This document shows, piece by piece, positions 9,864 to 46,283 of a DNA stretch of 64,000 bases. Numbering within the stretch: position 1 is the first letter of the stretch; each line of letters starts with the position of its first letter. Position numbers and translations under genes: made by a program. A model generated the notes under the pieces. That model searched no databases, was not told the DNA's origin, and was given only the letters and a program-made list of their open reading frames with translations. The stretch comes from Squalus acanthias. Lineage: Eukaryota. The stretch spans positions 137,704,001 through 137,768,000 of the forward strand of contig CM059431.1 of NCBI GenBank assembly GCA_030390025.1, in the 5' to 3' direction.

Positions 9864-10063
9864 NNNNNNNNNNNNNNNNNNNNNNNNNNNNNNNNNNNNN
9901 NNNNNNNNNNNNNNNNNNNNNNNNNNNNNNNNNNNNNNNNNNNNNNNNNNNNNNNNNNNNNNNNNNNNNNNNNNNNNNNNNNNNNNNNNNNNNNNNNNNN
10001 NNNNNNNNNNNNNNNNNNNNNNNNNNNNNNNNNNNNNNNNNNNNNNNNNNNNNNNNNNNNNNN
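9864..10063. other. Assembly gap (200 N)
   Basis: Exactly 200 N between two different satellites; true size and relative orientation of the two sides are unverified. Confidence 0.99.
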
Positions 10064-33966: not shown

Positions 33967-34735
33967 TTTAAAAAACTGTGCGAAATCTGTCCAGCTTTAC
34001 GGTTCGGACTGGAGTGTATCTGAGATCAGTAAATACTCCCCATTTATAGAACAATCGGGGCCCAGGTCAGAAAAAAACATGTTACACAATAAGTGGCGTT
34101 AGTTACAGTCACTTAACAAACAAGGGGCGATTTTCCGCTTCAGTGCGCCCGGCCGCAAGTGGGGAAATTGTATGGAAAGTAATCCCAGAGGGAATGTGCC
34201 CTGCGCATGGTCCCTGAACGCTGAATGGAACATCCCTCCTGGTCTCTGCCTTAGGCTCTTGAGGTTTCAAATCCATTCGCTGAAAATCTTACTCATCCAT
34301 TGCATTAGCTAAATTTGTTTTTTTACTGCAATGATACCGAGTGATAATTCCGCTTTAATATTACTGGCAATGATTCATCGCTTACAATACTAGTGATGAC
34401 TCCTCTCTAACATTGCTGGCGGTGATCCTACTCTAATATTAATGGCAATGAGGCTACGCCGACTTTAATGCTGGTGATCCTATTCTACCGTTACTGGTGG
34501 TGATTATAATCTAAAATTACCGCTGGTAACCCAACATAAAAAAAAACTGGTTGATACCACTCTACCATTATTACTGGTAAAGATATACTAAAATTACTGA
34601 TGTTGATCTTATTGTAATTAATGGGGATGACCCTACTCCAGCATAATTGTAGTGACCATACTCTAACATTACTGGTCTTTGGTCCTACTCTAACATTAAT
34701 GGTGGTGACTCTACTCTACCATTATTGTGGTTAAC

Positions 34736-36313
34736 TTTAGAATTCGCAAAATTATCGCGATTTTATAATAACGAGAAGGAGACATAAAGTTTCGTATGAA
34801 CAGCTTTATTTCAGCAGAATGCTGTCATGTTTCAAAAGGGACACAAGCAGCCTGTAAAATGGCCACCACGCCTCGTGGCAGAAGGTTCTAGACTTTCAGT
34901 AGGCAGACAAGATGGCGTTTCATTAAACATTTCAGCAAGATCGGACAGGACTCAGCACATTGGAGATAATGACAAGACGCGATGGGTTTGCATTTTAAAC
35001 ATAAATACTGGAATCGGTTTTCCAGGTCTATTGTACTGGGCGATCAAGGACCCATCCAAAGACATTGATATGCGAATTCCCCACGGCTCTACGATGAGAG
35101 AGCCGTTCGCGGGTACTTACAGCAAGCATTTGGAAGCCCCAAAACCCCTCCAGGGAGACTCCTAGCCGGTTCCACAATGGGAGAAATATTAACGGGTACT
35201 CAGACACTTACAAGCATCACCGAGACCGATTAACGACAAGTACCACTCCATACAAGAAGATTGAGCACCAAAACATGACAAAAGATGGACATTAAGATTG
35301 GGCGGGAGATAAGGAATTACAGTACTATAAACTGTAGTGTCCAAACGTCCATCTTTCTCTTATCCTCTGGCTGTTCATCGTGCTCTTAGTCTTTACCACC
35401 GACTGGAGCTCTGGACTCTCATTCTCTGATCCACTGATTTTCCGGGAGTCAACCTCGTGGCTTGCCGCGAAGATCTGTGGAGAACTGGTCTGCGAAGGCC
35501 AGTAAAACGGGCGCACCATCCCGAGAAGTCGGTAAACGGTGTTGGAACCGAAGGCCCGAGAGGAGATGAGATGAGATGAGATGAGAAGAGAAGAAGACGA
35601 CAACACGTATCGCCACGGTCAGTAAGCCCCGACCGCGCCTGTAAATCGATTAGACTCTTCTTCGAGTTCTACTGAACCAGTGTAGGGCACAGGAAGACTC
35701 TTTTTCGAGTGGTGTCCGAACTCCGAGGTCAACACAGATCTTCATTGCAGCAGACGGTCCAGCCTGCTAGCCGGAGCAAAGCGAGTAAACAAGTGGGTTA
35801 CAGAGACCCCGGATCAACACGTGAATAGTCAGGTGTTGCCGAGCAGCGTTTTGGAATTCTCTGAGTTATCACGAGTGGTGAGCATGAGTCTCGATCCTAC
35901 AAATCTAGATTAGGACAGGTATTGATAGGGGAGGGTTTATGTTTTAAGGATAATTATAATGTGTGTCCCCTTTTACGATGTGTCGTGCGCTCCTCGTTTC
36001 CCTAAACCTAGTTGCATAAATGTGTGTAAGTTTGTACTGTCAGTAATCTGTGCTTATGACATGTATTTCGTAATCTTGAATAATATGCAATAAAGATTTT
36101 CCATTTCGCACTGTTCAACCGGGTCTAACTGAGTTTTTCTCTACATTATTGTTCTCGCACCTAAGTCCAGTGTCAGAACCGTAAGGGCGAGTGGGTCGAA
36201 CCACTCACAGGTGTCTCGTGCTACCAGGCTGGCTAGAGACCAGAATAGGCAACAAGGCCTAACCCCGCACTAGCACCCAGGCTAAGCACAGAGCCACGGC
36301 GAAACCCCTTACA
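34736..36313 (+). repeat. 5' LTR (1578 bp)
   Basis: Starts TTTAGAATTCGC (TG mutated to TT), ends CCCCTTACA; about 35 substitutions plus one 5-bp (GAGAT)n indel versus the 3' LTR by manual count. Confidence 0.96.
35295..35335 (+). promoter_or_regulatory. Candidate LTR promoter: inverted CCAAT/GC box and TATAAA (35326-35331)
   Basis: GATTGGGCGGG followed ~25 nt later by TACTATAAAC; TATA retained in the 3' LTR. Confidence 0.5.
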
Positions 36314-36318
36314 GACAA

Positions 36319-36336
36319 TGGCGACCACGAAGGGAC
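36319..36336 (+). promoter_or_regulatory. Primer-binding site, tRNA-Arg(UCG)-like
   Basis: TGGCGACCACGAAGGGAC 5 nt after the LTR; its reverse complement GTCCCTTCGTGGTCG-CCA matches, from memory, the 3' end of a vertebrate tRNA-Arg(TCG). Confidence 0.85.
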
Positions 36337-36379
36337 ACTGGCAGCGAGAAAATAATGTGTTAGACCTTGGTATGAATGG

Positions 36380-38140
36380 GTGAAATGTTATGGAAGAGGG
36401 AATAGCAGATTATGTTTTTGGAAAAGTGAATTTTCTAAGAGATGGATAAGTGACCTGCTGGTGGATAAGCGTCCACTAGAGGCAGCCATGAGGTGGACAG
36501 GTAGCAAGGAACATAAAAAATCTGTAGAGAAAGCTGTCTGGCTGATGTGTTATAAAAGGCAAGTCCAGATTTCGGACCAGGTCATCGTAGCGCAGGCAGC
36601 TCAGATCAATTGTTTGGAGGTGGAGATGGACGAGAAGGTCGCGAGGGGGCAGCAGCTCATCGCGTCTTTAAATGCGTTGCATCAGGAATGCCAGTTAGTC
36701 GCCAACCACCATGAGGCGAAAATAGATTACCTCGAGTGCCAGGTCACTGAGGCCAAATTAAATGAGGGCAGAATAAGGGAACGATGTGCCCGCCTAGCTG
36801 CTCAAATAAAAGCCCAGGAAGAGAGCTTAAAGGGGGTTAGGGCGGCATATAAGATGGCCCTCGAGGATAAACATGAGGGGGCCGACCACAGCGTCTGCCA
36901 GAGAGAGATAGGGAACCTTAAAGAGGCCCTGAATAAAGCGCACTGCATGGTGTGCCTCATCAGCCCGTCAGCGCACCAGCCGCAGGTGGGTGGGGAATTC
37001 CAAAAATCCCTACCAAACAAGGCACAGGAGGTATTTGCCACTGCACCCTCCGTGCCGCCCAGCTATTCGGCAACCTGGGTAAGGGAGGAAGTGGTAGAAG
37101 TAGAGGAAGAGGTCCCCGAGGTAGTACAGCTCCCGGAGGTAGTAGTGAAGCCGGGACCATTGTGCCCGCTTACAGGTATCAAGAGGGGCCCGAACGGAGA
37201 CGATGGGGAAGAGGGGAATCTCCTCAACCAGCTTGTGTTGCCTCACAGCGCACACCAGCTGAGGGCTATGATCAGCCACGTACGGAAGCTGTCCGAGTCA
37301 GACAACCCTTCCGTACATTTCAGGGAGGTAGAGCAGACCGCAGCCATTAACGGCTGCGACGATGGGGAAAGGGCAAAAATGCTGCTGGTCTCCTTAGACA
37401 GCTCGATCCTCCAGTGTCTCTCAGACGCGAGCAAAAGGGGAGATCATACCTATGGGGAATTGAGGGACGAGGTCCTGGAAGTGTTGGGAGCGGACGATGA
37501 AGGTTCGTTCGTTAGATTGGGACAGACAGTGCAGATGGAGGGAGAACCCCCGAAGGTTTTCACCGACAGGCTGTGGCCTGTCTATCAGCGTAGTTGCCCA
37601 GGCGCGCCCGAGCGTGTTGATTTAGACGGTGTTGGTTTAGCTCACTGGCTCAGATATATAGTACCCAACAGCTTACCAGCCGTGAGGGAGCAGGCAAAAG
37701 CGTGGTTTGATCCCAATAACGCCGCCACAACAGAGGAGTCGGTCCTAAATCGACTCACGGTAGGGTACCGTAATACTAGGAGCACGGGAGCGCGTCCCCT
37801 TAAGGGAAAGGTGCATGAGGCACGGCCCAGCGCCCCGGCTCAAAGGGAGTGGCATCAGGAGGGAAATCGCGTCCCACGAGCCAGTAATGCTTGTTTCGGG
37901 TGCGGAAAGACAGGGCACTGGCGCAACAACTGCAGGAACACTTGGAAAGAGTCCAGGGATAAAAATCCCGCAGCCCGAGCCCAGGTGCCTGCCCCCGATA
38001 AGGGAGCTGGTGTGCCTATCCATCCCGATGCGATAGAATCAATGCTGGGAGCCATGCGGACCCTCATGATTTCGCAAGGCTGGGTGACAGTCGCTACCGG
38101 CCCCGCAGATGCCGCAGCCCCATCTGCCGGTACCCAATGA
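36380..38140 (+). CDS. gag: Gag polyprotein (coiled coil, capsid-like region, CCHC zinc knuckle); start uncertain (frame open from 36356, first ATG 36488)
   Basis: Long ORF directly after the PBS; CFGCGKTGHWRNNC (CX2CX4HX4C) at 37892-37933; heptad-rich N-terminal third. Confidence 0.9.
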   Translation: MKCYGRGNSRLCFWKSEFSKRWISDLLVDKRPLEAAMRWTGSKEHKKSVEKAVWLMCYKRQVQISDQVIVAQAAQINCLEVEMDEKVARGQQLIASLNALHQECQLVANHHEAKIDYLECQVTEAKLNEGRIRERCARLAAQIKAQEESLKGVRAAYKMALEDKHEGADHSVCQREIGNLKEALNKAHCMVCLISPSAHQPQVGGEFQKSLPNKAQEVFATAPSVPPSYSATWVREEVVEVEEEVPEVVQLPEVVVKPGPLCPLTGIKRGPNGDDGEEGNLLNQLVLPHSAHQLRAMISHVRKLSESDNPSVHFREVEQTAAINGCDDGERAKMLLVSLDSSILQCLSDASKRGDHTYGELRDEVLEVLGADDEGSFVRLGQTVQMEGEPPKVFTDRLWPVYQRSCPGAPERVDLDGVGLAHWLRYIVPNSLPAVREQAKAWFDPNNAATTEESVLNRLTVGYRNTRSTGARPLKGKVHEARPSAPAQREWHQEGNRVPRASNACFGCGKTGHWRNNCRNTWKESRDKNPAARAQVPAPDKGAGVPIHPDAIESMLGAMRTLMISQGWVTVATGPADAAAPSAGTQ

Positions 38141-39253
38141 CTAGAGCCCACGCAGCCTGCCTACCTGTGTCCTTTTAAAAGACACGCACAGGAGGGGGTC
38201 TCCTGTGAGGAGGCCAGGTTAAAAGAGCAGGCCCTGCGGGAGGAAAACGCCCGCTTAATAGGGAAAGTAGACGAGCTAGAAGGGCAGCTTAGAGAGCAGG
38301 CCTTACGGGAGCAGAACGCCCGCTTAATGGGGAAAATAGATGGGCTAGAAGGGCAGCTTAGAGAGATAAAAGCAGCCTGCAGGGTAGCCAGAAGCAGGAA
38401 GTATGAGGATTTTAACCAGTGCAAGCTGTATAAGCCGGGTGCACAAGGGCAAACCACAGGGGCCAAACCTGTGAGTAGGGACTCGCAGCCCCGGGTAGGG
38501 CCACAGGGCACACAGGCAGGCAAAGCAGCTGACATCAGGGGAGAGGACATCCTAGCAAAATGTAGGATCCTTTATTGGGGTTGGGAGTCAGATGAGGAAG
38601 AGTTCGAGGAGCTCGACCAAGATCGTGACACAAGCGAAGAGGAGCTGGAATCGGAGGACGAAAGGGTCGCCACCGATTCAGGTAAAGGGAAGATAGGGAC
38701 TGCAGATGGAGATCCACACAGGGTGGAGACAGAAGCTGCAGGTCCCGAACTCAGTGGGGCGGGGCTAGGGGAGGCGGAGCCAGCGGCTGTAGTGGGACCA
38801 CAGGACGTGGCAATGGAAGCCTCAGAACCCAGTTCGTCCGACTTGAACGTCTTGCCCTCGAGGGAGGTAGGGACTGCGAGTGAAGGTCCGCCTACTGGGC
38901 CAAGTAGGGCGGTGTCAGAGGCTGCAGATCCCGAGTTCAGGGAGGCGGATTCAGGGGAGGCGGAGCCAGCGACTGTGGTGGGACCACGGGTCGCCACGGT
39001 GGAAGTCTTGAAACCCGGTCCGTCAGTCCTGGAGTTCCTGCCCACGGTAGTTCCCCGTAGGTCAAGTCGGACACCCCAGCCCAGGATGATGTGGGTAAGT
39101 CCCCAGAGTGTCCCAAGGCGTAGGGTCAAGGCTAAGGCAGCCCAGGGAGATCCCAGTCCCAGCGCAGCAGCAACAGGCTGCGGCAGATCAAAGGGAGGGG
39201 TCAGCACCCTCCCACCGTTGGGAAAAGCTTGTGGCCGCCTTCACAGAATTTGA
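38141..39253 (+). CDS. Gag readthrough extension ('ORF X', 370 aa) in the pol position: duplicated Gag-like coiled coil, acidic repeats, basic tail
   Basis: Same frame as gag; I translated 38141-38326 with no stop, joining the listed ORF 38327-39253; gag stop context CAA-TGA-CTA-G. Confidence 0.72.
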   Translation, partial: LEPTQPAYLCPFKRHAQEGVSCEEARLKEQALREENARLIGKVDELEGQLREQALREQNARLMGKIDGLEGQLREIKAACRVARSRKYEDFNQCKLYKPGAQGQTTGAKPVSRDSQPRVGPQGTQAGKAADIRGEDILAKCRILYWGWESDEEEFEELDQDRDTSEEELESEDERVATDSGKGKIGTADGDPHRVETEAAGPELSGAGLGEAEPAAVVGPQDVAMEASEPSSSDLNVLPSREVGTASEGPPTGPSRAVSEAADPEFREADSGEAEPATVVGPRVATVEVLKPGPSVLEFLPTVVPRRSSRTPQPRMMWVSPQSVPRRRVKAKAAQGDPSPSAAATGCGRSKGGVSTLPPLGKACGRLHRI

Positions 39254-39482
39254 GTAGGCCGCCCTGGGAACGGGCGGCGCTGTACAGTTTATAAGATAAG
39301 TGATAAGTTTTAGTTTGGAAGTTTTGTAAGCTTTATATTAAATGTTAATAAGTAAAAGTAATGATGGGCGTTTAGATTAGGTTTAGTTAAAAGATCTATC
39401 CAGTGCACATGTCTTCTTACGTGAGGCGAGGTCAGGGGACCCGCTCACCCTTCACAAAAGCCAGAGACTCTTGGGAGGCTGG

Positions 39483-39506
39483 CTACCTCATTCTATCTGA
39501 TCACAG
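39483..39506 (+). promoter_or_regulatory. Candidate env splice acceptor
   Basis: CTACCTCATTCTATCTGATCACAG|G, 13 nt before the env ATG at 39520 (AGGATGG). Confidence 0.5.
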
Positions 39507-39519
39507 GAACCAAGGAAGG

Positions 39520-41945
39520 ATGGAACGGATTCTGGTAGAGCTCACGGCACTTGGATGTGGATTGGCCTATCGAGGCCGCACCAAGGATGTTGTGGTGTTT
39601 GGATGCTCCGGTGACACGGCCCCCATCGCGGTGGATGGGACCGGGAGAAGAGAGGCTGAGGAGACCGCCACTGATTTCCACAAGGGAAGGTGGCCAGGAT
39701 GGCTGGGAACGAATTCCACTGAGTATTCCAGTACATCGGGATTTGCCTACAAAGAGACTTCTTTAATGTGCCCCAAAGTGAGGATCATCGCACCCAGAGT
39801 CAGCGTCACCTTCGGCAAACGGATTTGTTTGACTTGTAATGGGAATGTCCCATTGAGCCGATGGTGGTGGCTATGAAAGCTGAGCAAAAACATGAGGAAA
39901 TCTTCGGTCGAGTGGGAGCGACTGGATAATAATACCCATCGGACAATTACGGGGACTGACGGACAATTGAAAGTCTGTTGGGACAAATGGTGGGAACCGG
40001 ATGAGGGAATTTATGTGTGTATGTGGGGGTCGAAGCACGTCTGCCCCAAAGGCATCTCCATATTTTTCATCAATCAGTGGCAGGATAATGGGAAAGGGAT
40101 GAGGTGGGATGCAAGCACCAGGGGGTGCGGGGCTCCATACTCTCCGATCCCGGTAAATGCCACTGAACTCATTACGCGCCCACACAAGGCCCCGCCCACA
40201 ATTCCGGTGGTTCTAGCTAAGGAAGAAGGGTGCCCTAAAACCAGTAAGGGACCCGGGAATGGTTTGGTACTGGTCCCTACAGACAAGCTACTGTTTCAGG
40301 GGGTACATTATGTGGTGGCTTCGGTGATTTTAAATCTCACCGAGATGCGGTTGCCAGAATGGTGCCCCAAAGAGACGGAACAATTGTACCAGGTCCTGTT
40401 GACCAAGATGTTTAGGCAATTTTATGAGTTCGATTTCGCGGAAATTGATAAAACGAGTTTGTACACCGCACCACATGAAGTTTTGGGCCAGGTGGGGAGG
40501 CAAAGAAGGGGTATTGTGAACGATATGTTCACCGCTTTTAATACAGGAACATCTGTGGTCAACGCTCTAGACAACGTGGAGCTGCAGACCCAGGTTAATG
40601 GTTTAAAAACACAATTAAAGAATATCCTCACCGACGAAAATAAGGTGGTTGGGTCTGGGTTACATGAGGACAAGGCCATGACTCTCCATTTGAAGGAAAA
40701 TATTGCTGAGCTGGAGAAACATGCGCGTACGGTAAATGCCCTGATTAGGGAAGATCGGAATGCATCCGATCAAGCTGCGCAGAACGAGGTGTGCGTACTA
40801 TACGGGGCGTGGTTACTGGGCGAGGGCCGCAGTAATTTAAAGGATTTAAAACAAGGTTTGGTCCCCTCCTGGATAAGTAACAAACACCTGCAGGTGCTCC
40901 ACCCTTTTCAGAATGCATTAAGTCCGTGCCAGCTCAGGCTAGCTTCAGAAGCATACCCAGTCCCCGTGGACTGCGGACGATCAAACCACACCATTATGGG
41001 TGTAGTTTTACGTATGCCGGTTTTGGGCGACACAGCAAAGACCGCCCCGGTATATCGGGTAGAGAACATTGGTGTTATTCAGGGGGGAGCCCACATTCGC
41101 TATGCAGCGGTTCCACCTTACGTCATCCGCTGGGAGCAAACGATGACAGGTACAGATCTCTCTGGTTGTCGTGGCAGGGGAGCACACATAATCCTGTGTC
41201 CCCAGCACTTTATTGCCTTTTTAGCACTACAGTGCGGGTTCAGAACGGCTGGCGCCAAGCCCATGAATTGCACCATGGAGGCAATGGCACAAGATCATGT
41301 GCCTCCGCAGGTAGCATACATCGGGGTGGAACATATTGTGTTACCACTGCAGCGCAACTCTACCAGCATGGAAAGCGTAGCCGGTGTCCGGTGAGTGACA
41401 GCAGTTTCTGTTTTAAACCCAGGGCTGAAGTTCAAGTGGCACAGCAGCGAATTGTCCCGATCCCTGAACCATCCACTGTTCATCTAACAGTAAAAGAGAA
41501 TTTTACCGACTTGCAGCGATTCGTCGCGCATTTCGGATACCTCATTCCCCCTCTCCCTGAACACCTCACCAAACTTTTGAAAGCCGTAGCGGTTTCGCAG
41601 AAACATTTTTATACCCTTGAGCAAAAGACCGTCGAGATAGGGTCAGAGATCCTAGACATAGTAATCCCGCCGTGGTGGGATCTGTTCACCAACATTGAAG
41701 TGCCTTCCTGGATTAGAATAGCCTCCCACATTTTAGTTCTATGCCAGGTAATAATTGTAGTGTACCTATTGGTCGTGCATTGCAAGAGGGGCAAGCGCCT
41801 CACCAAACAGGAAAACACGGGAGAGTGGCGAGAGCGTTACGTGCGCGTGCACGAAGAAAGCGCCTGCGTAAATGACCAGAGTGACGTCACTCCAGTTTTT
41901 TCATGTGTGTCTCGAATTTGTTTACGGATTGTTATTTTTTCTTAG
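39520..41945 (+). pseudogene. env: env: signal peptide, Ig-like domain, F-type class I fusion glycoprotein, TM anchor (~808 aa reconstructed); one in-frame stop (39874) and one frameshift (~41323-41326)
   Basis: ORFs 39403 and 39892 share a frame; furin site RQRR|GIVNDMFTAFNTG at 40498-40510; heptad repeat; Cys-rich middle; TM IASHILVLCQVIIVVYLLVVHC; 8 N-x-S/T sequons. Confidence 0.87.
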
Positions 41946-42306
41946 AACCTGTAATTAAGTTTGGAACTCTATATGTTTAAGAGTTGTTTTAATTGTTTTG
42001 TTTTGGTGTTGTTGAATTATGGTTGTTTGATTGTTTGGTTTTTCTTTTCCTTGAATAAAAAAATAAACACATGCATATACAGGTGGTGCAAGAGGCATCG
42101 GCCTGTCACACATGGAGGACAAACACGCGGTGTAAGTTAAAGGCAGATGCTGCCTACGGTTATAAGAATGTAATTTTTCCCTGGGAAATAAGGACGACAC
42201 GGAGACCCTAGATAGTTTTAAGTTAAGGGAGTATTTGGATATGGAGAATCGAGATAATATTGCTCACCACAATGTTTTTGATATGATAAGCGGAGTTATT
42301 CGCATC

Positions 42307-42318
42307 AACAGGAGGGAC
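42307..42318 (+). promoter_or_regulatory. Polypurine tract
   Basis: AACAGGAGGGAC immediately before the TG of the 3' LTR. Confidence 0.7.
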
Positions 42319-43901
42319 TGTAGAATTCGCATAATTATCGCGATTTTATAATAACGAGAAGGAGACATAAAGTTTCGTATGAACAGCTTTATTTCAGCAG
42401 AATGCTGTCATGTTTCAAAAGGGACACAAGCAGCCTGTAAAATGGCCGCCACGCCTCGTGGCAGAAGGTTCTAGACTTTCAGTAGGCAGACAAGATGGCG
42501 TTTCATTAAACATTTCAGCAAGATCGGACAGGACTCAGCACATTGGAGATAATGACAAGACGCGATGGGTTTGCATTTTAAACATAAATACTGGAATCGG
42601 TTTTCCAGGTCTATTGTACTGGGCGATCAAGGACCCATCCAAAGATATTGATATGCGAATTCCCCACGGCTCTAGGATGAGAGAGCCGTTCGCGGTGACT
42701 TACAGAAAGCATTTGGAAGCCCCAAAACCCCTCCAGGGAGACTCCTAGGCGGTTCCACAATGGGATAAATATTAACGGGTACTCCGACAGTTACAAGCAT
42801 CACCGAGACCGATTAACGACAAGTACCACCCCATACAAGAAGTTTGAGCGCCAAAACATGACAATAGATGGACATTAAGATTTGGGGAGAGATAAGGAAT
42901 TACAGTACTATAAACTGTAGTGTCCAAACGTCCATCTTTCTCTTATCCTCTGGCTGTTCATCGTGCTCTTAGTCTTTACCACCGACTGGAGCTCCGGACT
43001 CTCATTCTCTGATCCGCTGATTTTCCGGGAGACAACCTCGTGGCTTGCCGCGAAGATCTGTGGAGAACTGGTCTGCGAAGGCCAGTAAAACGGGCGCACC
43101 ATCCCGAGAAGTCGGTAAACGGTGTTGGAAACGAAGGCCCGAGAGGAGATGAGATGAGATGAGACGAGATGAGAAGAGAAGAAGACGACAACACGTATCG
43201 CCACGGTCAGTAAGCCCCGACCGCGCCTGTAAATCGATTAGACTCTTCTTCGAGTTCTACCGAACCGGTGTAGGGCACAGGAAGACTCTTTTTCGAGTGG
43301 TGTCCGAACTCCGAGGTCAACACAGATCTTCATGACAGCAGACGGTCCAGCCTGCTAGCCGGAGCAAAGCGAGTAAACAAGTGGGTTACAGAGACCCCAG
43401 ATCAACACGTGAATAGCCAGGTGTTGCCGAGCAGCGTTTCGGAATTCTCCGAGTTATCACGAGTGGTGAGCATGAGTCTCGATCCTACAAATCTAGATTA
43501 GGACAGGTATTGATAGGGGAGGGTTTATGTTTTAAGGATAATTATAATGTGTGTCCCCTTTTACGATGTGTCGTGCGCTCCTCGTTTCCCTAAACCTAGT
43601 TGCATAAATGTGTGTAAGTTTGTACTGTCAGTAATCTGTGCTTATGACATGTATTTCGTAATCTTGAATAATATGCAATAAAGATTTTCCATTTCGCACT
43701 GTTCAACTGGGTCTACCTGAGTTTTTCTCTACATTATTGTTCTCGCACCTAAGTCCAGTGTCAGAACCGTAAGGGCGAGTGGGTCGAACCACTCACAGGT
43801 GTCTAGTGCTACCAGGCTGGCTGGAGACCAGAATAGGCAACAAGGCCTAACCCCGCACTAGCACCCAGGCTAAGCACAGAGCCACGGCGAAACCCCTTAC
43901 A
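42319..43901 (+). repeat. 3' LTR (1583 bp)
   Basis: TGTAGAATTCGC...CCCCTTACA followed by TSD CAAC (43902-43905). Confidence 0.96.
43677..43682 (+). terminator. Candidate LTR polyadenylation signal
   Basis: AATAAA (36089-36094 in the 5' LTR) followed by GT/T-rich sequence. Confidence 0.55.
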
Positions 43902-45870
43902 CAACCTATTCTATGATTACTAGCGTTCACTCTCCTCAAAAATTACTGTCGGTGAAGCTATCTAACATTGCATGTAGTAACCATACTGTAATATTACTGG
44001 TGGGGGCTCTACGCTAATATTATTGGTAGTGATTCTACTCTAACATTAATGATGGTGACCCTAATCTAACATTAATGGTGGTGACGCTAATCTAAAATTA
44101 CTGGTGTTGACCTTGCGCTACCATGAATTGTGGACACCCTACTCTAACATTACTGGTGGTGACCCTACTCTCTCATTACTGGTGGTGACTCTACTCTAAC
44201 ATTACTGGTGATGACCCTAATCAAACATTAATGCTGGATACCATATTCTAACATTACCGTTGGTGAATCAAATCTAACATTACTGGTGGTGACACTACTG
44301 TAACATTTCTGGTGGTGTATATACTCGAACATTACCGGTGGTGACCCTACTCTAACGTTACTGGTCTTTGGTCCTACTCTAACCTTAATGGTGCTGACAC
44401 TACTCTACGATTATTGTGGTCAACCTACTCTATGATATCTAGCGGTCACCCTACTCAAAAATTACTGGCGGTGAAGCTATCTAACATTACATGTAGTAAC
44501 CATACTGTAATATTACTGGTAGGGGCTCTACGCTTATATTATTGGTAGTGATTCTACTCTAACATTAATGGTGGTGACCCTACACTAACATTAATGGTGG
44601 TGAAACTAATCTAAAATTACTGGTGGTGACCTTGCGCTATCATGAATTGTGGAGACCCTACTCTAACATTACTGGTGGTGACTCTACTCTAACATCACTG
44701 GAGGTGACCCTAATCAAACATTAATGCTGGATACCATATTCTAACATTACCGTTGGTGAATCAAATCTAACATTACTGGTGGTGACACTACTGTAACATT
44801 TCTGGTGATGTATATACTCGAACATTACCGGTGGTGACCCTACTCTAACATTATTGGTGGTGACTCTACTATAACATTACTGGTGGTGGCCCTACTCTGA
44901 AATTACTGGTGGTAACTCTACTCTAACATTACTGGTGGTGACTCTACTCGAACATTACTGCTGGTGACCCTACTCTAACATTACTGGTGGTGATCATACT
45001 CTAACATTATTGGTGGTGACCCTACTCTAACATTACTGGTGGTGACCATACTCTAACATTAATGCTGGTGACCCTAATCTAAAATTACTGGTGGTGACCT
45101 TGCGCTATCATGACTTGTGGAGACTCTTCTCTAACATTAAGGTGGTGAACCTAATCTAACATTAATGGAGGTGCCATTAATCTATCATTAGTGATGGTGA
45201 CCCTACTCTCACATTACTGGTGGTGACTCTACTCTAACATTACTGGTGGTGACCCTAATCAGACATTAATGCTGGATACTTACTCTAACATTACAGTTAG
45301 TGACTCAAATCTAACATTACTGGTGGTAACACTACTGTAACATTGCTGGTGGTGTACATACTCGAACATTACTGGTGGTGATTCTTCTCTAATATTACTG
45401 GTGGTGACTCTACTATAACATAACTGGTTGTGACCCTACTCTGACATTACTTTTGGTAACTCTCCTCTATTATTACTGGTGGTGACTCTACTCTAACATT
45501 ACAGGTGGTGACCCTTCACTAACATAACTGGTGTTGACCCTATTCTAACATTAATGGCGGTGACCCTACTCTAACATTACTGATGGTGACCCTACACTAA
45601 CGTTACTGGTGGTCACACTACTCTAACATTAGTGGAGGTGACGCTACTCTAACATTACTGGTGGTGACAGTACTCTATCATTACTGGTGGTGACACCAAA
45701 CTAACATTACTGGTGGTAACCCTACACTAACATTACTGGTGCTGACCCTACTCCAACATTACTGGTGTTGACTCTACTCTAACATTAATGGTGGTGACCC
45801 TACTATAACTTTACTGTTGGTGACCCTACTTTAACATTACCGGTGGTGAATCTACTATAACATTACTAGT

Positions 45871-46283
45871 GGGCATAATCTTATAATAAGGGGATGCTCT
45901 TTCAAAACTGAGATGAGGAGAAACTTCTTCACTAAGAGGGTAGTAAGTCTGTGGAATTTGCTGCCCCAGGAAGCTGTGGAAGCTACATCATTAAATAAAT
46001 TTAAAACAGAAATAAACAGTTTCCTAGAAGTAAAGGGAATTAGGGGTTACGGGGAGCGGGCAGGACATTGGACATGAGGCTGAGTTCGGATCGGTCAAGG
46101 TCCTGTGGGTGGCGGAGCGGGCCCAGGGGCTGAGTGGCCGGGTCCTGCTCCGACTTCTTGTGTTCTTTAGATTTGAGGTTATGATCAGATCAGCCATGAT
46201 CTTATTGAGTGGTGGAGCAGTCTCGTTGGGCCGATTGGTCTACTCCTGCTCCTATTTCTTATGTTCTTATGTTCTTATGTTCT
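45871..46283 (+). mobile_element. 5'-truncated CR1 3' end in the satellite, copy A
   Basis: FKTEMRRNFFT coding end and (TTCTTATG)n tail; flanked by TAACATTACTAGTGG on both sides. Confidence 0.9.

Follow-up and report, generated by a model that had tools for sequence, protein, structure and literature searches.

The element at positions 34,736–43,901 of the window, a 64,000-nt stretch of the Squalus acanthias genome, is most likely a decayed copy of a pol-deleted sublineage of an endogenous retrovirus (ERV) family about 12.7 kb long, presumably complemented in trans by siblings with an open Pro-Pol and carrying a putative readthrough domain under selection. Judged from sequence comparison, the pol-less form once had pol and is not a lineage that always lacked it. 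Some ancestor of this sublineage would have exchanged roughly 3.6 kb of its pro-pol for 241 nt with a likeness to a Gag coiled coil. The segment lost would begin near codon 12 and end shortly before the NQCKLYKP motif, which lies behind the integrase SH3-like domain. Such a swap would have preserved the frame, so that the open reading frame (ORF) past the gag TGA would comprise a Pol N-terminus, a coiled coil and the Pol C-terminal tail. The features of a deletion derivative are found together: enzymatic pol domains are absent, the LTRs and primer-binding site (PBS) are common with a coding-competent form, and the same deletion occurs at many sites. The window copy is a fossil, since its gag and env are both broken.

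The boundaries of the element are given by direct repeats (34734–36313 and 42317–43901) whose alignment of 1585 columns has 35 mismatches and one gap, an identity of 97.5%; the true LTR ends, together with all other features, are collected in Table 1. The initial annotation had described paired TG..CA LTRs of about 98% identity and a 4-bp target-site duplication. The identity holds and 4-mers do flank the element, but the 5' LTR of the window copy opens with TT and the flanks agree at only three of four positions. The 18-nt PBS, which we take to correspond to tRNA-Arg, and the polypurine tract (PPT) were confirmed. So was the 6.0-kb interior, which measures 6003 bp and holds a gag-like frame whose ATG falls within the PBS, a 370-codon ORF in the same frame past one TGA, and env-like frames. 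The description of the element as complete was overstated: codon 22 of gag is an in-frame stop and one nucleotide is missing near 36434, and env is broken by an in-frame stop at 39874–39876 and has lost one nucleotide near 41321, so that it is seen in two frames. With both genes interrupted, the window copy is unable to supply its own Gag and Env.

Table 1. Features of the pol-less element (window coordinates)
Feature	Position	Strand	Remarks
5' flanking 4-mer TAAC	34732..34735	+	target-site duplication, 3/4 matching 3' flank
5' LTR	34736..36313	+	TT start in window copy, CA end; 97.5% identity with 3' LTR
gag	36318..38140	+	long open part 36356-38137; dN/dS 0.27-0.28
18-nt primer-binding site TGGCGACCACGAAGGGAC	36319..36336	+	overlapped by gag ATG at 36318
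gag N-terminal coiled coil	about 36719-36859	+	
gag PPSY	37055-37066	+	
gag CCHC knuckle	37892-37933	+	E 0.004, short of Pfam cut-off
gag stop TGA in TGA-CTAG context	38138..38144	+	proposed readthrough site
First ~11 Pro-Pol codons (LEPTQPAYLC..), kept	38141..38172	+	collinear with L068 until 38172; beyond, L068 continues into protease
241-nt filler	38173..38413	+	stands in for about 3.6 kb of pol; coiled coil resembling Gag coiled-coil end of related ERVs
69-nt tandem repeat within filler	38224-38365	+	
C-terminal Pol ORF tail, including stop codon	38414..39253	+	downstream of integrase SH3-like domain
env	39391..41945	+	first ATG 39409; second Met 39520, ahead of hydrophobic stretch
env RQRR	40498-40509	+	basic cleavage-like site
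env membrane-span-like segment	41709-41777	+	
Purine-rich tract AACAGGAGGGAC, polypurine tract	42307..42318	+	adjoins 3' LTR; identified on sequence only
3' LTR	42319..43901	+	TG..CA
3' flanking 4-mer CAAC	43902..43905	+	

To characterize the pol slot, stop-to-stop ORFs of at least 35 aa from both strands of the window element (5 ORFs in one scan, 88 in another) were searched against Pfam, and no RVP, RVT, RNase H or rve match was obtained at E≤1. The slot ORF (38141–39250) is a composite of about 11 first Pol codons, the 241-nt filler, placed to within about 20 nt on its right side, and a non-catalytic C-terminal Pol tail containing a 141-nt internal repeat. The slot protein matches residues 1206–1263 (5e-8) and 1352–1415 (9e-6) of the 1421-aa Pol of the relative L065; altogether it aligns solely to residues 1–13 and 1206–1415 of that protein, and at the DNA level the tail shares 94.5% identity with that of L067, a 1496-aa Pol frame. 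The claim that pol is missing therefore stands for the catalytic domains, while both Pol ends remain. Likewise, in the segment 38141–39500, where the initial annotation had regarded reverse transcriptase (RT) or integrase (IN) homology as decisive against its reading, Pol termini are present and catalytic RT/IN homology is absent. The annotated contrast between an organized frame and a blunt deletion is not supported as worded: the frame is open, yet it lies where pol was deleted and a filler took its place. That an autonomous element might hide an unrecognized polymerase or integrase in the slot or the env frames has a negligible probability. The open frames are all that speaks for it; the slot aligns to a Gag-like coiled coil and to those ends of Pol that have no catalytic role, the RT/IN profiles are unmatched, and in the env frame a membrane span and heptad-like helices accompany a basic cleavage-like site.

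The origin of the filler was examined separately. Its DNA shows no similarity to any other part of the window, and its score against Pol is not significant (attained by 129 of 500 shuffles). The resemblance to Gag coiled coils suggests a homology of kind only; the best donor-like protein is P0017, and the closest sequence in this genome is only about 43% identical. Splicing as the origin of the pol deletion was ruled out, as the 241-nt insert is unmatched in the one related Pol examined and the left break has no GT. No Gag-Pol fusion turned up when longer proteins were searched for one, which is weak evidence.

The same genome harbors the pol-bearing form, approximately 12.7 kb long, in which the LTR ends, PBS, gag, env and the codons following the gag stop are common with the pol-less form at 91–96% identity. 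Pieces of one such provirus, C22, match the window at six places: the LTR start (91%); the LTR end, PBS and gag start (94.4%, the PBS being identical, as it also is in the pol-bearing L069); the gag end with the first 32 nt past the TGA (91%), after which C22 enters a DTGA protease; the Pol tail at 38414–39323 (94.5%); a piece of env (95.8%); and the end of the 3' LTR (94.3%). This piecewise check of shared LTR, PBS, gag and env was made on C22, with which C7, C1 and C28 agree by coordinates. A pol-bearing relative sharing the PBS and LTR ends, which the initial annotation had proposed to look for, thus exists.

The Pro-Pol frame of C22 is open over 1496 aa, and 37 of 42 scored Pol matches are stop-free. 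In L065 Pol, RVT_1 (1.4e-33), an RT-RNaseH tether, RNase_H, Integrase_H2C2, rve and SH3 were identified, along with RVP (5e-3) and gag-asp_proteas (4e-3), both weak and below curated cut-offs. Across the full-length family, protease, RT, tether plus RNase H and IN were all detected in Pro-Pol and a CCHC knuckle in Gag, and TG..CA LTR ends, a tRNA-type PBS, a PPT and a short target duplication are all present. Sequence matches of the RT in the PDB are about equally good for MLV RT (8e-70), Ty3 (4e-68) and foamy PR-RT (4e-62). In L068 and L065 the TGA is followed by an in-frame protease; the family thus has gag and pro-pol in one frame split by a single stop, plus a 4-bp target duplication. These are marks of gamma-/epsilonretrovirus-like (class I) ERVs, with which the family shares both features and from which it differs in giving no match to a gamma-type env profile at E≤10.

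To assess how widespread the pol-less layout is, positions 38100–39400 were searched against the assembly. This returned 3683 first-look candidates, and among 40 scored, 39 other places had long matches at 89–95%. A junction-only probe (38150–38430) gave 1541 first-look candidates, and 40 of 40 scored matched at 92–98% with 267 or more of the 281 nt covered. When the protease region of the C22 form served as query, 1804 candidates were returned, all 40 scored being 99–100% identical. All these copy numbers are first-look candidate counts and no census. The junction is present in 29/29 fetched loci, of which 23 are collinear across 36600–40900 (4.3 kb), and the junction-bearing copies are spread over many contigs and are 2–8% diverged. 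A second full pol-less copy, L063, has LTRs of 96.1% identity and its own CCTA/CCTA duplication, which differs from the 4-bp flanks of the window element, the flanks compared being those of these two full copies. Gag, the replacement ORF and env are each open in some sampled copies, and all three are open in one fetched copy.

These data support the multi-copy family favored by the initial annotation, including insertion at independent sites. Loss of pol from one provirus once it had integrated, with a layout private to this locus, would agree with the decay of the window copy (gag and env each have a stop and a 1-nt deletion) and with its LTR divergence of 2.5%. This reading is refuted by the recurrence of junction and filler, seen at 39 other places out of 40 scored candidates and in all 40 scored probe matches on many contigs, by the 23 of 29 collinear loci and by L063, and we assign it practically no weight. 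Multiplication of the pol-less copies by segmental duplication, instead of reverse transcription and integration, might be read from two pairs that look like local duplicates, L053/L054 (same contig, 99.2%) and L014/L015. It is nonetheless highly improbable: copies lie on many contigs, the window and L063 have different flanks, and synonymous changes exceed non-synonymous ones, which is not expected from decay after duplication. Moreover, 13 of 15 solo LTRs of the family have perfect and all-distinct 4-bp duplications, and the other two have one mismatch each.

The gag and env products were then considered. Phmmer ties Gag to proteins bearing Ty3_capsid or Retrotrans_gag. The gag-end TGA is kept in 30 of 30 copies, and the heptamer TGACTAG, which we presume to promote readthrough, in 26 of 30 as well as in the pol-bearing L068. 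An Rfam scan of 34000–44500 at E≤1 gave zero matches, i.e., no known readthrough pseudoknot family in that interval.

The env ORF spans about 820 aa, with RQRR, long heptad-like helices and a C-terminal membrane span, and homologues were located in one skate, one sawshark and one catshark. Pfam at E≤10 returned nothing relevant for env, the gamma-type TLV_coat profile included, and PF00523 (paramyxovirus/pneumovirus F) was absent at the same threshold from env and all 11 homologues. Phmmer against the PDB yielded only chance-level antibody matches (E 0.8–1). In an Atlas search, the only match of the whole env was to a chordate cluster without a name (0.84); the language-model neighbours of its C-terminal half are Baculo_F and Fusion_gly clusters (0.94), which we treat as a lead only. 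AlphaFold2 models of the full 826-aa env (7 sequences, pLDDT 28) and of residues 300–826 (11 sequences, pLDDT 36.7) were too poor for a fold search.

Next, coding constraint was estimated from pairwise dN/dS among 23 copies, these being the best matches to the window and their pairs non-independent. The values were 0.27 for gag and 0.26 for the filler; for the env region they were 0.27 (39256–39876) and 0.10 (39877–40899), and for the Pol tail 0.33 in the first half and a near-neutral 0.77 in the second. The filler estimate, drawn from just 81 codons, has a bootstrap range of 0.15–0.46, against 0.94 and 1.72 in the two off-frames. In a tree of the sequence on either side of the deletion, the single sampled pol-bearing copy nests among the pol-less copies (support 0.91–0.94). 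Hence the constraint on gag, env and the tail could derive from the full-length form via recombination, and the filler is the sole part specific to the deleted form. The same nesting, together with the broken genes of the window copy, qualifies the annotated idea of a separate lineage supplying its own Gag and Env.

Given this nesting, one may ask whether the deleted form is a passive passenger resembling a defective-interfering genome, copied via its cis signals, in which the slot frame has no protein function and conservation reflects helper recombination, RNA-level constraints or youth. We regard this as rather unlikely. The possibly borrowed constraint and the near-neutral second half of the tail fit it, as do the analogous bovine D-type and ETn elements, which, in the parts of PMC10924933 and PMC1331978 that describe them, need no genes of their own. 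The in-frame constraint on the filler runs counter to it, since this part is specific to the deleted form. So does the integrity of the frame: the filler is open in 28 of 30 copies, and the slot is free of stops and frameshifts in 20 of 29 copies, each 5–9% diverged from the window.

We therefore return to the pol-deleted, trans-complemented sublineage and propose the following mechanism. The genomic RNA of the deleted form would be packaged, with protease, RT and integrase arriving in trans as Gag-Pro-Pol of full-length siblings that have the same PBS and LTR ends; mobilization in trans is thus a prediction from the shared elements. Co-packaging would make recombination between the two forms possible, and readthrough of the TGA would yield a predicted Gag-X fusion as the selected product of the deleted form. 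A bolder version, which we consider possible but doubtful, is that the deleted form is a satellite-like retrovirus making its own Gag, Env and Gag-X, the last a new readthrough protein with a borrowed Gag coiled coil in the former place of Pol, and with X selected to aid entry into, or competition for, helper Gag-Pro-Pol particles. If so, the parasite of a retrovirus would have evolved a dedicated protein, and the constraint on env would imply that helper and satellite spread jointly by germ-line reinfection.

Among known systems, the family is best read as a trans-complemented deletion lineage of the kind represented by IAP I-delta-1, ETn/MusD and the bovine D-type elements, here keeping gag and env. 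The I-delta-1 deletion leaves an open fused frame in which gag is joined to part of pol, whereas the shark form has lost all catalytic pol and gained a foreign Gag-like coiled coil in frame. IAP elements are also without env, which the shark family retains under constraint. According to the relevant portion of PMC1331978, mouse I-delta-1 is a subtype that carries a deletion and is complemented in trans by IAP elements of full length. The shark form is, in the same way, an internally deleted ERV sharing LTRs with coding-competent siblings, and its reliance on them is here inferred.

Competent and defective pairs with near-identical LTRs are further described for mouse ETn/MusD, cattle ERVK[2-1-LTR] D-type/C-type and koala recKoRV/KoRV-A (PMC1331978 and PMC10924933, in part); in such pairs part of another retroelement takes the place of a central segment, and the gag and env or pol parts on either side are conserved (PMC10924933, same portion). 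The shark pair follows this pattern, pol having given way to a piece that resembles Gag of a related ERV, but its host is a cartilaginous fish instead of mouse, cattle or koala. The defective ETn, D-type and recKoRV forms are, in the portions of these sources that cover them, without full-length ORFs, whereas shark gag, replacement ORF and env are open in some copies with dN/dS of 0.1–0.3.

Two further systems share the loss of pol with the shark form. HERV-H is a high-copy ERV whose commonest form is pol-deleted and is thought to have spread by complementation in trans; its deleted forms are not known to carry env or to show coding constraint, unlike the shark deletion, in which both are found. 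Friend SFFV, a replication-defective, helper-packaged exogenous retrovirus, likewise keeps gag- and env-derived genes in the absence of pol; viruses of this type are exogenous laboratory or tumour isolates with a rearranged env, whereas the shark form is a germline family with over a thousand candidate copies.

A resemblance to lokiretroviruses was also considered. These fish and amphibian ERVs have gag, a dual-RNase H pol and an env unlike the canonical one, and some have an extra coiled-coil-type 'smc' gene, as stated in part of PMC7947760, the main text of which does not contain the words 'shark' or 'cartilaginous'. The tether plus RNase H of the shark-family Pol and the language-model neighbours of its env point in this direction, while the defining similarity to PF00523 was not found in shark env at E≤10.

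The family is a sizeable retroviral lineage of sharks and rays that has been little described and is apparently recent. In the known pairs of mouse, cattle and koala the defective partner is usually without working genes. Here, both partners occur in one genome, that of a cartilaginous fish, with first-look candidates in roughly similar numbers (about 1500 and 1800), and the defective one has kept gag and env and gained a constrained in-frame coiled-coil module behind a conserved stop. It thus offers a natural system for asking whether a retroviral "parasite of a parasite" can evolve its own protein, and for gauging how recombination between partners shapes ERV families.

The window element itself is inserted in a 26-bp satellite array. 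Contigs from four sequencing runs (type not stated) cover it, three of them spanning the left junction, which attests to its presence and not to transcription.

The element at 34736–43901 is bounded by direct repeats (34734–36313 and 42317–43901) that differ by 35 mismatches and one gap over 1585 columns (97.5% identity). The initial annotation had described paired TG..CA LTRs about 98% identical and a 4-bp target site duplication; the identity and the 3′ LTR ends agree with this, but the 5′ LTR begins with TT, and the flanking 4-mers, TAAC and CAAC, match in three of four positions rather than perfectly. A 26-bp satellite array, also readable with 52- and 78-bp periods at about 75% matches, lies on both sides (34353–34534 and 43935–45872); the provirus thus landed inside a satellite. 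An assembly gap of 200 N occupies positions 9864–10063.

Features of the window element, pieces of the pol-bearing C22 provirus aligned to it (percent identity), and dN/dS among copies
Feature	Window position	Characteristics	dN/dS in frame	dN/dS off-frame
5′ LTR	34736–36313	starts TT, ends CA; ends read in sequence		
PBS	36319–36336	TGGCGACCACGAAGGGAC, behind 5′ LTR; presumably fits arginine tRNA		
gag-like frame	36356–38137			
Slot ORF	38141–39250	370 codons, gag's frame, one TGA between		
env-like frames	39391–39876, 39877–41394, 40881–41945			
Purine-rich tract (PPT)		AACAGGAGGGAC, adjoins 3′ LTR upstream		
3′ LTR	42319–43901	starts TG, ends CA; ends read in sequence		
C22 LTR start	34738–35001	91%		
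C22 LTR end, identical PBS, gag start	36150–36451	94.4%		
C22 gag end, TGA, next 32 nt	37551–38172	91%		
C22 Pol-frame end	38414–39323	94.5%		
C22 env piece	40770–41170	95.8%		
C22 3′ LTR end	43619–43901	94.3%		
gag, codon comparison			0.27	0.95, 1.28
Whole slot			0.44	0.78, 0.90
Filler	38171–38413	codon bootstrap 0.15–0.46	0.26	0.94, 1.72
Tail, first half			0.33	
Tail, second half			0.77	
Env frame, upstream part	39256–39876		0.27	1.26, 1.40
env	39877–40899		0.10	1.71, 1.94

The 6003-bp interior between the LTRs holds three coding regions: gag, a slot ORF behind the gag stop, and env. As initially annotated, pol domains are absent: a Pfam scan of stop-to-stop ORFs of at least 35 aa on both strands (5 ORFs in one run, 88 in another) detected neither protease nor RT, RNase H or integrase at E ≤ 1, and gag yielded only a weak CCHC knuckle (E 0.004, under the curated cut-off). 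The element had also been called complete, which its gag and env contradict. From the gag ATG at 36318, which overlaps the PBS, translation would end at codon 22, a stop in this copy, and a 1-nt deletion lies shortly downstream. Env, which other copies carry from 39391 as a single frame of about 820 codons, is interrupted by an in-frame stop at 39874–39876 (a sense codon in 28 of 30 aligned copies) and by a further 1-nt deletion near 41321.

The pol-less layout is that of a family, not a private deletion. In the 3.7-Gb genome, a 1200-nt LTR query gave 5074 candidates (here and below first-look counts, not copy numbers), 40 of which were scored at 86–97% identity. The segment 38100–39400 gave 3683, with 39 places besides the window among the 40 scored and long matches at 89–95%. 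The stretch from gag end to slot end was whole at all 29 places read; 23 are collinear with the window over 36600–40900, and further out there are truncations or rearrangements in L037, L041, L048, L050, L052 and L056. A probe of the junction and the slot's filler segment (38150–38430) gave 1541 candidates, and all 40 scored match at 92–98%. A count of copies at independent sites with different duplications had been suggested as a check; L063, a second full-length pol-less copy with LTRs 96.1% alike, is flanked by CCTA/CCTA. Among 15 LTR loci without internal sequence and with both ends located (taken from 28, the other 13 having internal sequence, an insertion or matches short of the end), 13 show perfect 4-bp duplications, no two of them alike, and the other two carry a single mismatch. 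At L062 (3–1763, minus strand), an unrelated 587-aa frame lies about 250 nt past the env end of a pol-less copy, at the expected 3′ LTR start; its gag-like start runs into an RT motif, and another retroelement has probably inserted there.

In an alignment of the window with 29 loci, the gag stop is TGA in all 30 copies and the filler is open in 28. The slot frame is free of frameshifts and stops in 20 of the 29 loci, themselves 5–9% diverged from the window; for the gag and env parts, the clean loci number 11 and 12, respectively. Pairwise Nei–Gojobori ratios (Table) were calculated for 23 copies, i.e., the window and 22 loci; the six rearranged loci were omitted, as was L054, which nearly duplicates L053. 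As the pairs are non-independent and the copies were picked as best matches to the window, these values show constraint, not its size.

Parts of the slot were traced to Pol within the same genome. A phmmer search of 1.8 billion representatives, with an open gag from locus L061 as the query, returned 37 hits, all too short to take in pol; the organisms named were catsharks, a horn shark and a frog, and distant hits bear Ty3_capsid or Retrotrans_gag. P0005, the closest gag relative at 48% identity, points to a second gag family, in which a 364-aa ORF behind gag at L064 contains LVDTGAA (RVP E 0.19) and starts with LEPxQPxYLC, as the slot does. A genome search placed the C-terminal half of this ORF, at one place (L065), within a 1421-aa open Pro-Pol frame with RVT_1 (1.4e-33), RT-RNaseH tether, RNase_H, Integrase_H2C2, rve and SH3-like domains; its protease matches are weak (RVP 5e-3, gag-asp_proteas 4e-3, under curated cut-offs). 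Slot residues 1–13 align weakly with L065, residues 79–134 with its Pol 1206–1263 (5e-8) and residues 301–364 with 1352–1415 (9e-6). With L065 Pol 121–1221 as the query, 37 of 42 scored places were stop-free, and 38 were 86–87% identical to L065, in open frames of 1307–2007 aa, mostly about 1496 aa.

One of these places, the pol-bearing C22 provirus (on contig C22), was read in six small pieces (Table). Past window position 38172 it runs on into a DTGA protease. The expected helper with pol and shared PBS and LTR ends thus has a counterpart, the C22 PBS being identical and its LTR pieces 91–94.4% alike. Protease DNA of the C22-type form gave 1804 first-look candidates, all 40 scored being 99–100% identical. 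By coordinates, protease places on contigs C7 and C1 fall between LTR matches, and one on C28 abuts a Pol match; the ends read at the C7 and C1 places (L026, L023) are collinear with the window, and the LTR pair on C7 puts that provirus at about 12.7 kb. The window element is accordingly a C22-type ERV in which 241 nt (38173–38413, the filler, its right boundary uncertain by about 20 nt) stand in for about 3.6 kb of pro-pol, followed by a C-terminal Pol remnant (the tail, 38414–39253).

Within the filler is a 69-nt tandem repeat; the segment encodes a coiled coil. No counterpart exists in L065 Pol, against which 129 of 500 shuffles equalled its score. The filler resembles the end of the Gag N-terminal coiled coil in the same ERV superfamily; its score against the window's own gag was equalled in 1 of 500 shuffles, and BLASTP (52 proteins) matched the gag-like P0017 (1.3e-5), P0035 (7.8e-5), P0005 (2.5e-4) and P0012 (1e-3) and the family's own gag (8.9e-4), all at one Gag position and with a motif like IQAACRVAR in common. 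Because coiled coils inflate such scores, derivation from the gag of a related element is probable, not proven. No donor was found in the same genome, where P0017 is at best about 43% identical to anything. According to PMC10924933, a piece of another retroelement likewise takes the place of a central segment in the bovine, mouse and koala pairs, and the gag and env flanks are kept; here pol is swapped for a Gag-like piece.

The gag stop stands in the context CAA-TGA-CTA-G, with the next ORF in frame, in 26 of 30 pol-less copies and in L068, a piece of C22. UGA-CUAG favours readthrough; Rfam gave no structure family for the window element. Since an ORF lies in frame behind the gag stop in both forms, the products would be Gag and Gag-Pro-Pol for the full-length form, and Gag plus Gag-X for the deleted one, where X is the slot protein. 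The deleted RNA retains LTRs, PBS, PPT, the whole leader and gag, and so could be packaged, primed and integrated by the enzymes of full-length siblings whose PBS and LTR ends are the same. In a tree built from 1.5 kb of sequence next to the deletion, with C22 as the one pol-bearing copy, C22 nests among pol-less copies (support 0.91–0.94), and its mean identity to them (94.7%) exceeds that among themselves (93.2%); this fits exchange between co-packaged genomes. From sequence, we infer trans mobilisation, readthrough products and exchange between forms. Contigs from three runs of unknown type (window 36314–42316) have several-fold greater summed depth over env (39500–41900) than over gag and slot; env being common to both forms, or subgenomic RNA, would fit, but contigs cannot show this.

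Trans-complemented deleted ERV morphs are already known from IAP I-delta-1 and ETn/MusD (PMC1331978) and from bovine D-type elements and recKoRV (PMC10924933), and the pol-less form described here is another deleted morph. Unusually, it keeps gag and env under constraint and has a constrained in-frame replacement domain behind a conserved stop. A pol-deleted gag–env lineage in cartilaginous fish was not found in literature on lokiretroviruses, shark ERV env and trans-complementation of non-autonomous ERVs (mostly titles and abstract openings).

Among solved structures, the family Pol is about equally close to MLV RT (8e-70), Ty3 (4e-68) and foamy PR-RT (4e-62), with PFV integrase at 1e-31; the family has 4-bp duplications and a Pol with tether and RNase H. 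Env homologues were found only in a skate, a sawshark, a catshark and unnamed contigs (60–79% identity), and env has no Pfam or PDB sequence match. A language-model search with env residues 380–826 gave Baculo_F (12% of members) and Fusion_gly F0 (80%) as nearest clusters, both at 0.94; such kinship is a lead only. Lokiretroviruses have an F-like env defined by PF00523 similarity, and some carry an 'smc' gene (PMC7947760); a test of the present family's env did not find that similarity, and membership is not supported. The words 'shark' and 'cartilaginous' are absent from the main text of PMC7947760 and PMC9040795. Residues 131–216 of the family env (P0001; window ~39780–40040) have a weak immunoglobulin V likeness (Pfam Ig_3 E 0.15; antibody light chains in PDB at E 0.8–1), which could reflect a captured Ig-like fold in the surface subunit or simply chance.

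The second gag family (L064 155–1249; G000:C2:89191454-89192548; ~85% identical to P0005) has a pol-deleted form of its own, its 364-aa ORF joining an N-terminal protease half to a Pol tail; the motif between them, which gave no domain hit, presumably recalls the RNase H end. As a query this ORF gave 12315 first-look candidates, and many variants are split near residue 175, with 0.5–0.6 kb between halves; no env-like ORF lies within 5 kb downstream of the L064 copy. The pol-bearing element of this family (G000:C6:133729780-133736400; L065, L066) shares the LTR end CCCCTTACA with the window family and differs in its 18-nt PBS, TGGCGAGCCAGCCAGGAG, which we take to fit another arginine tRNA. For a third gag family (43–45% identical to P0007) there are 9868 candidates, one of them, at G000:C6:87455610-87457409, with an open frame of 1004 aa. 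A Pol match at G000:C1:125504188-125507487 lies within an open frame of 2007 aa, which may be a gag–pol fusion lacking the stop.
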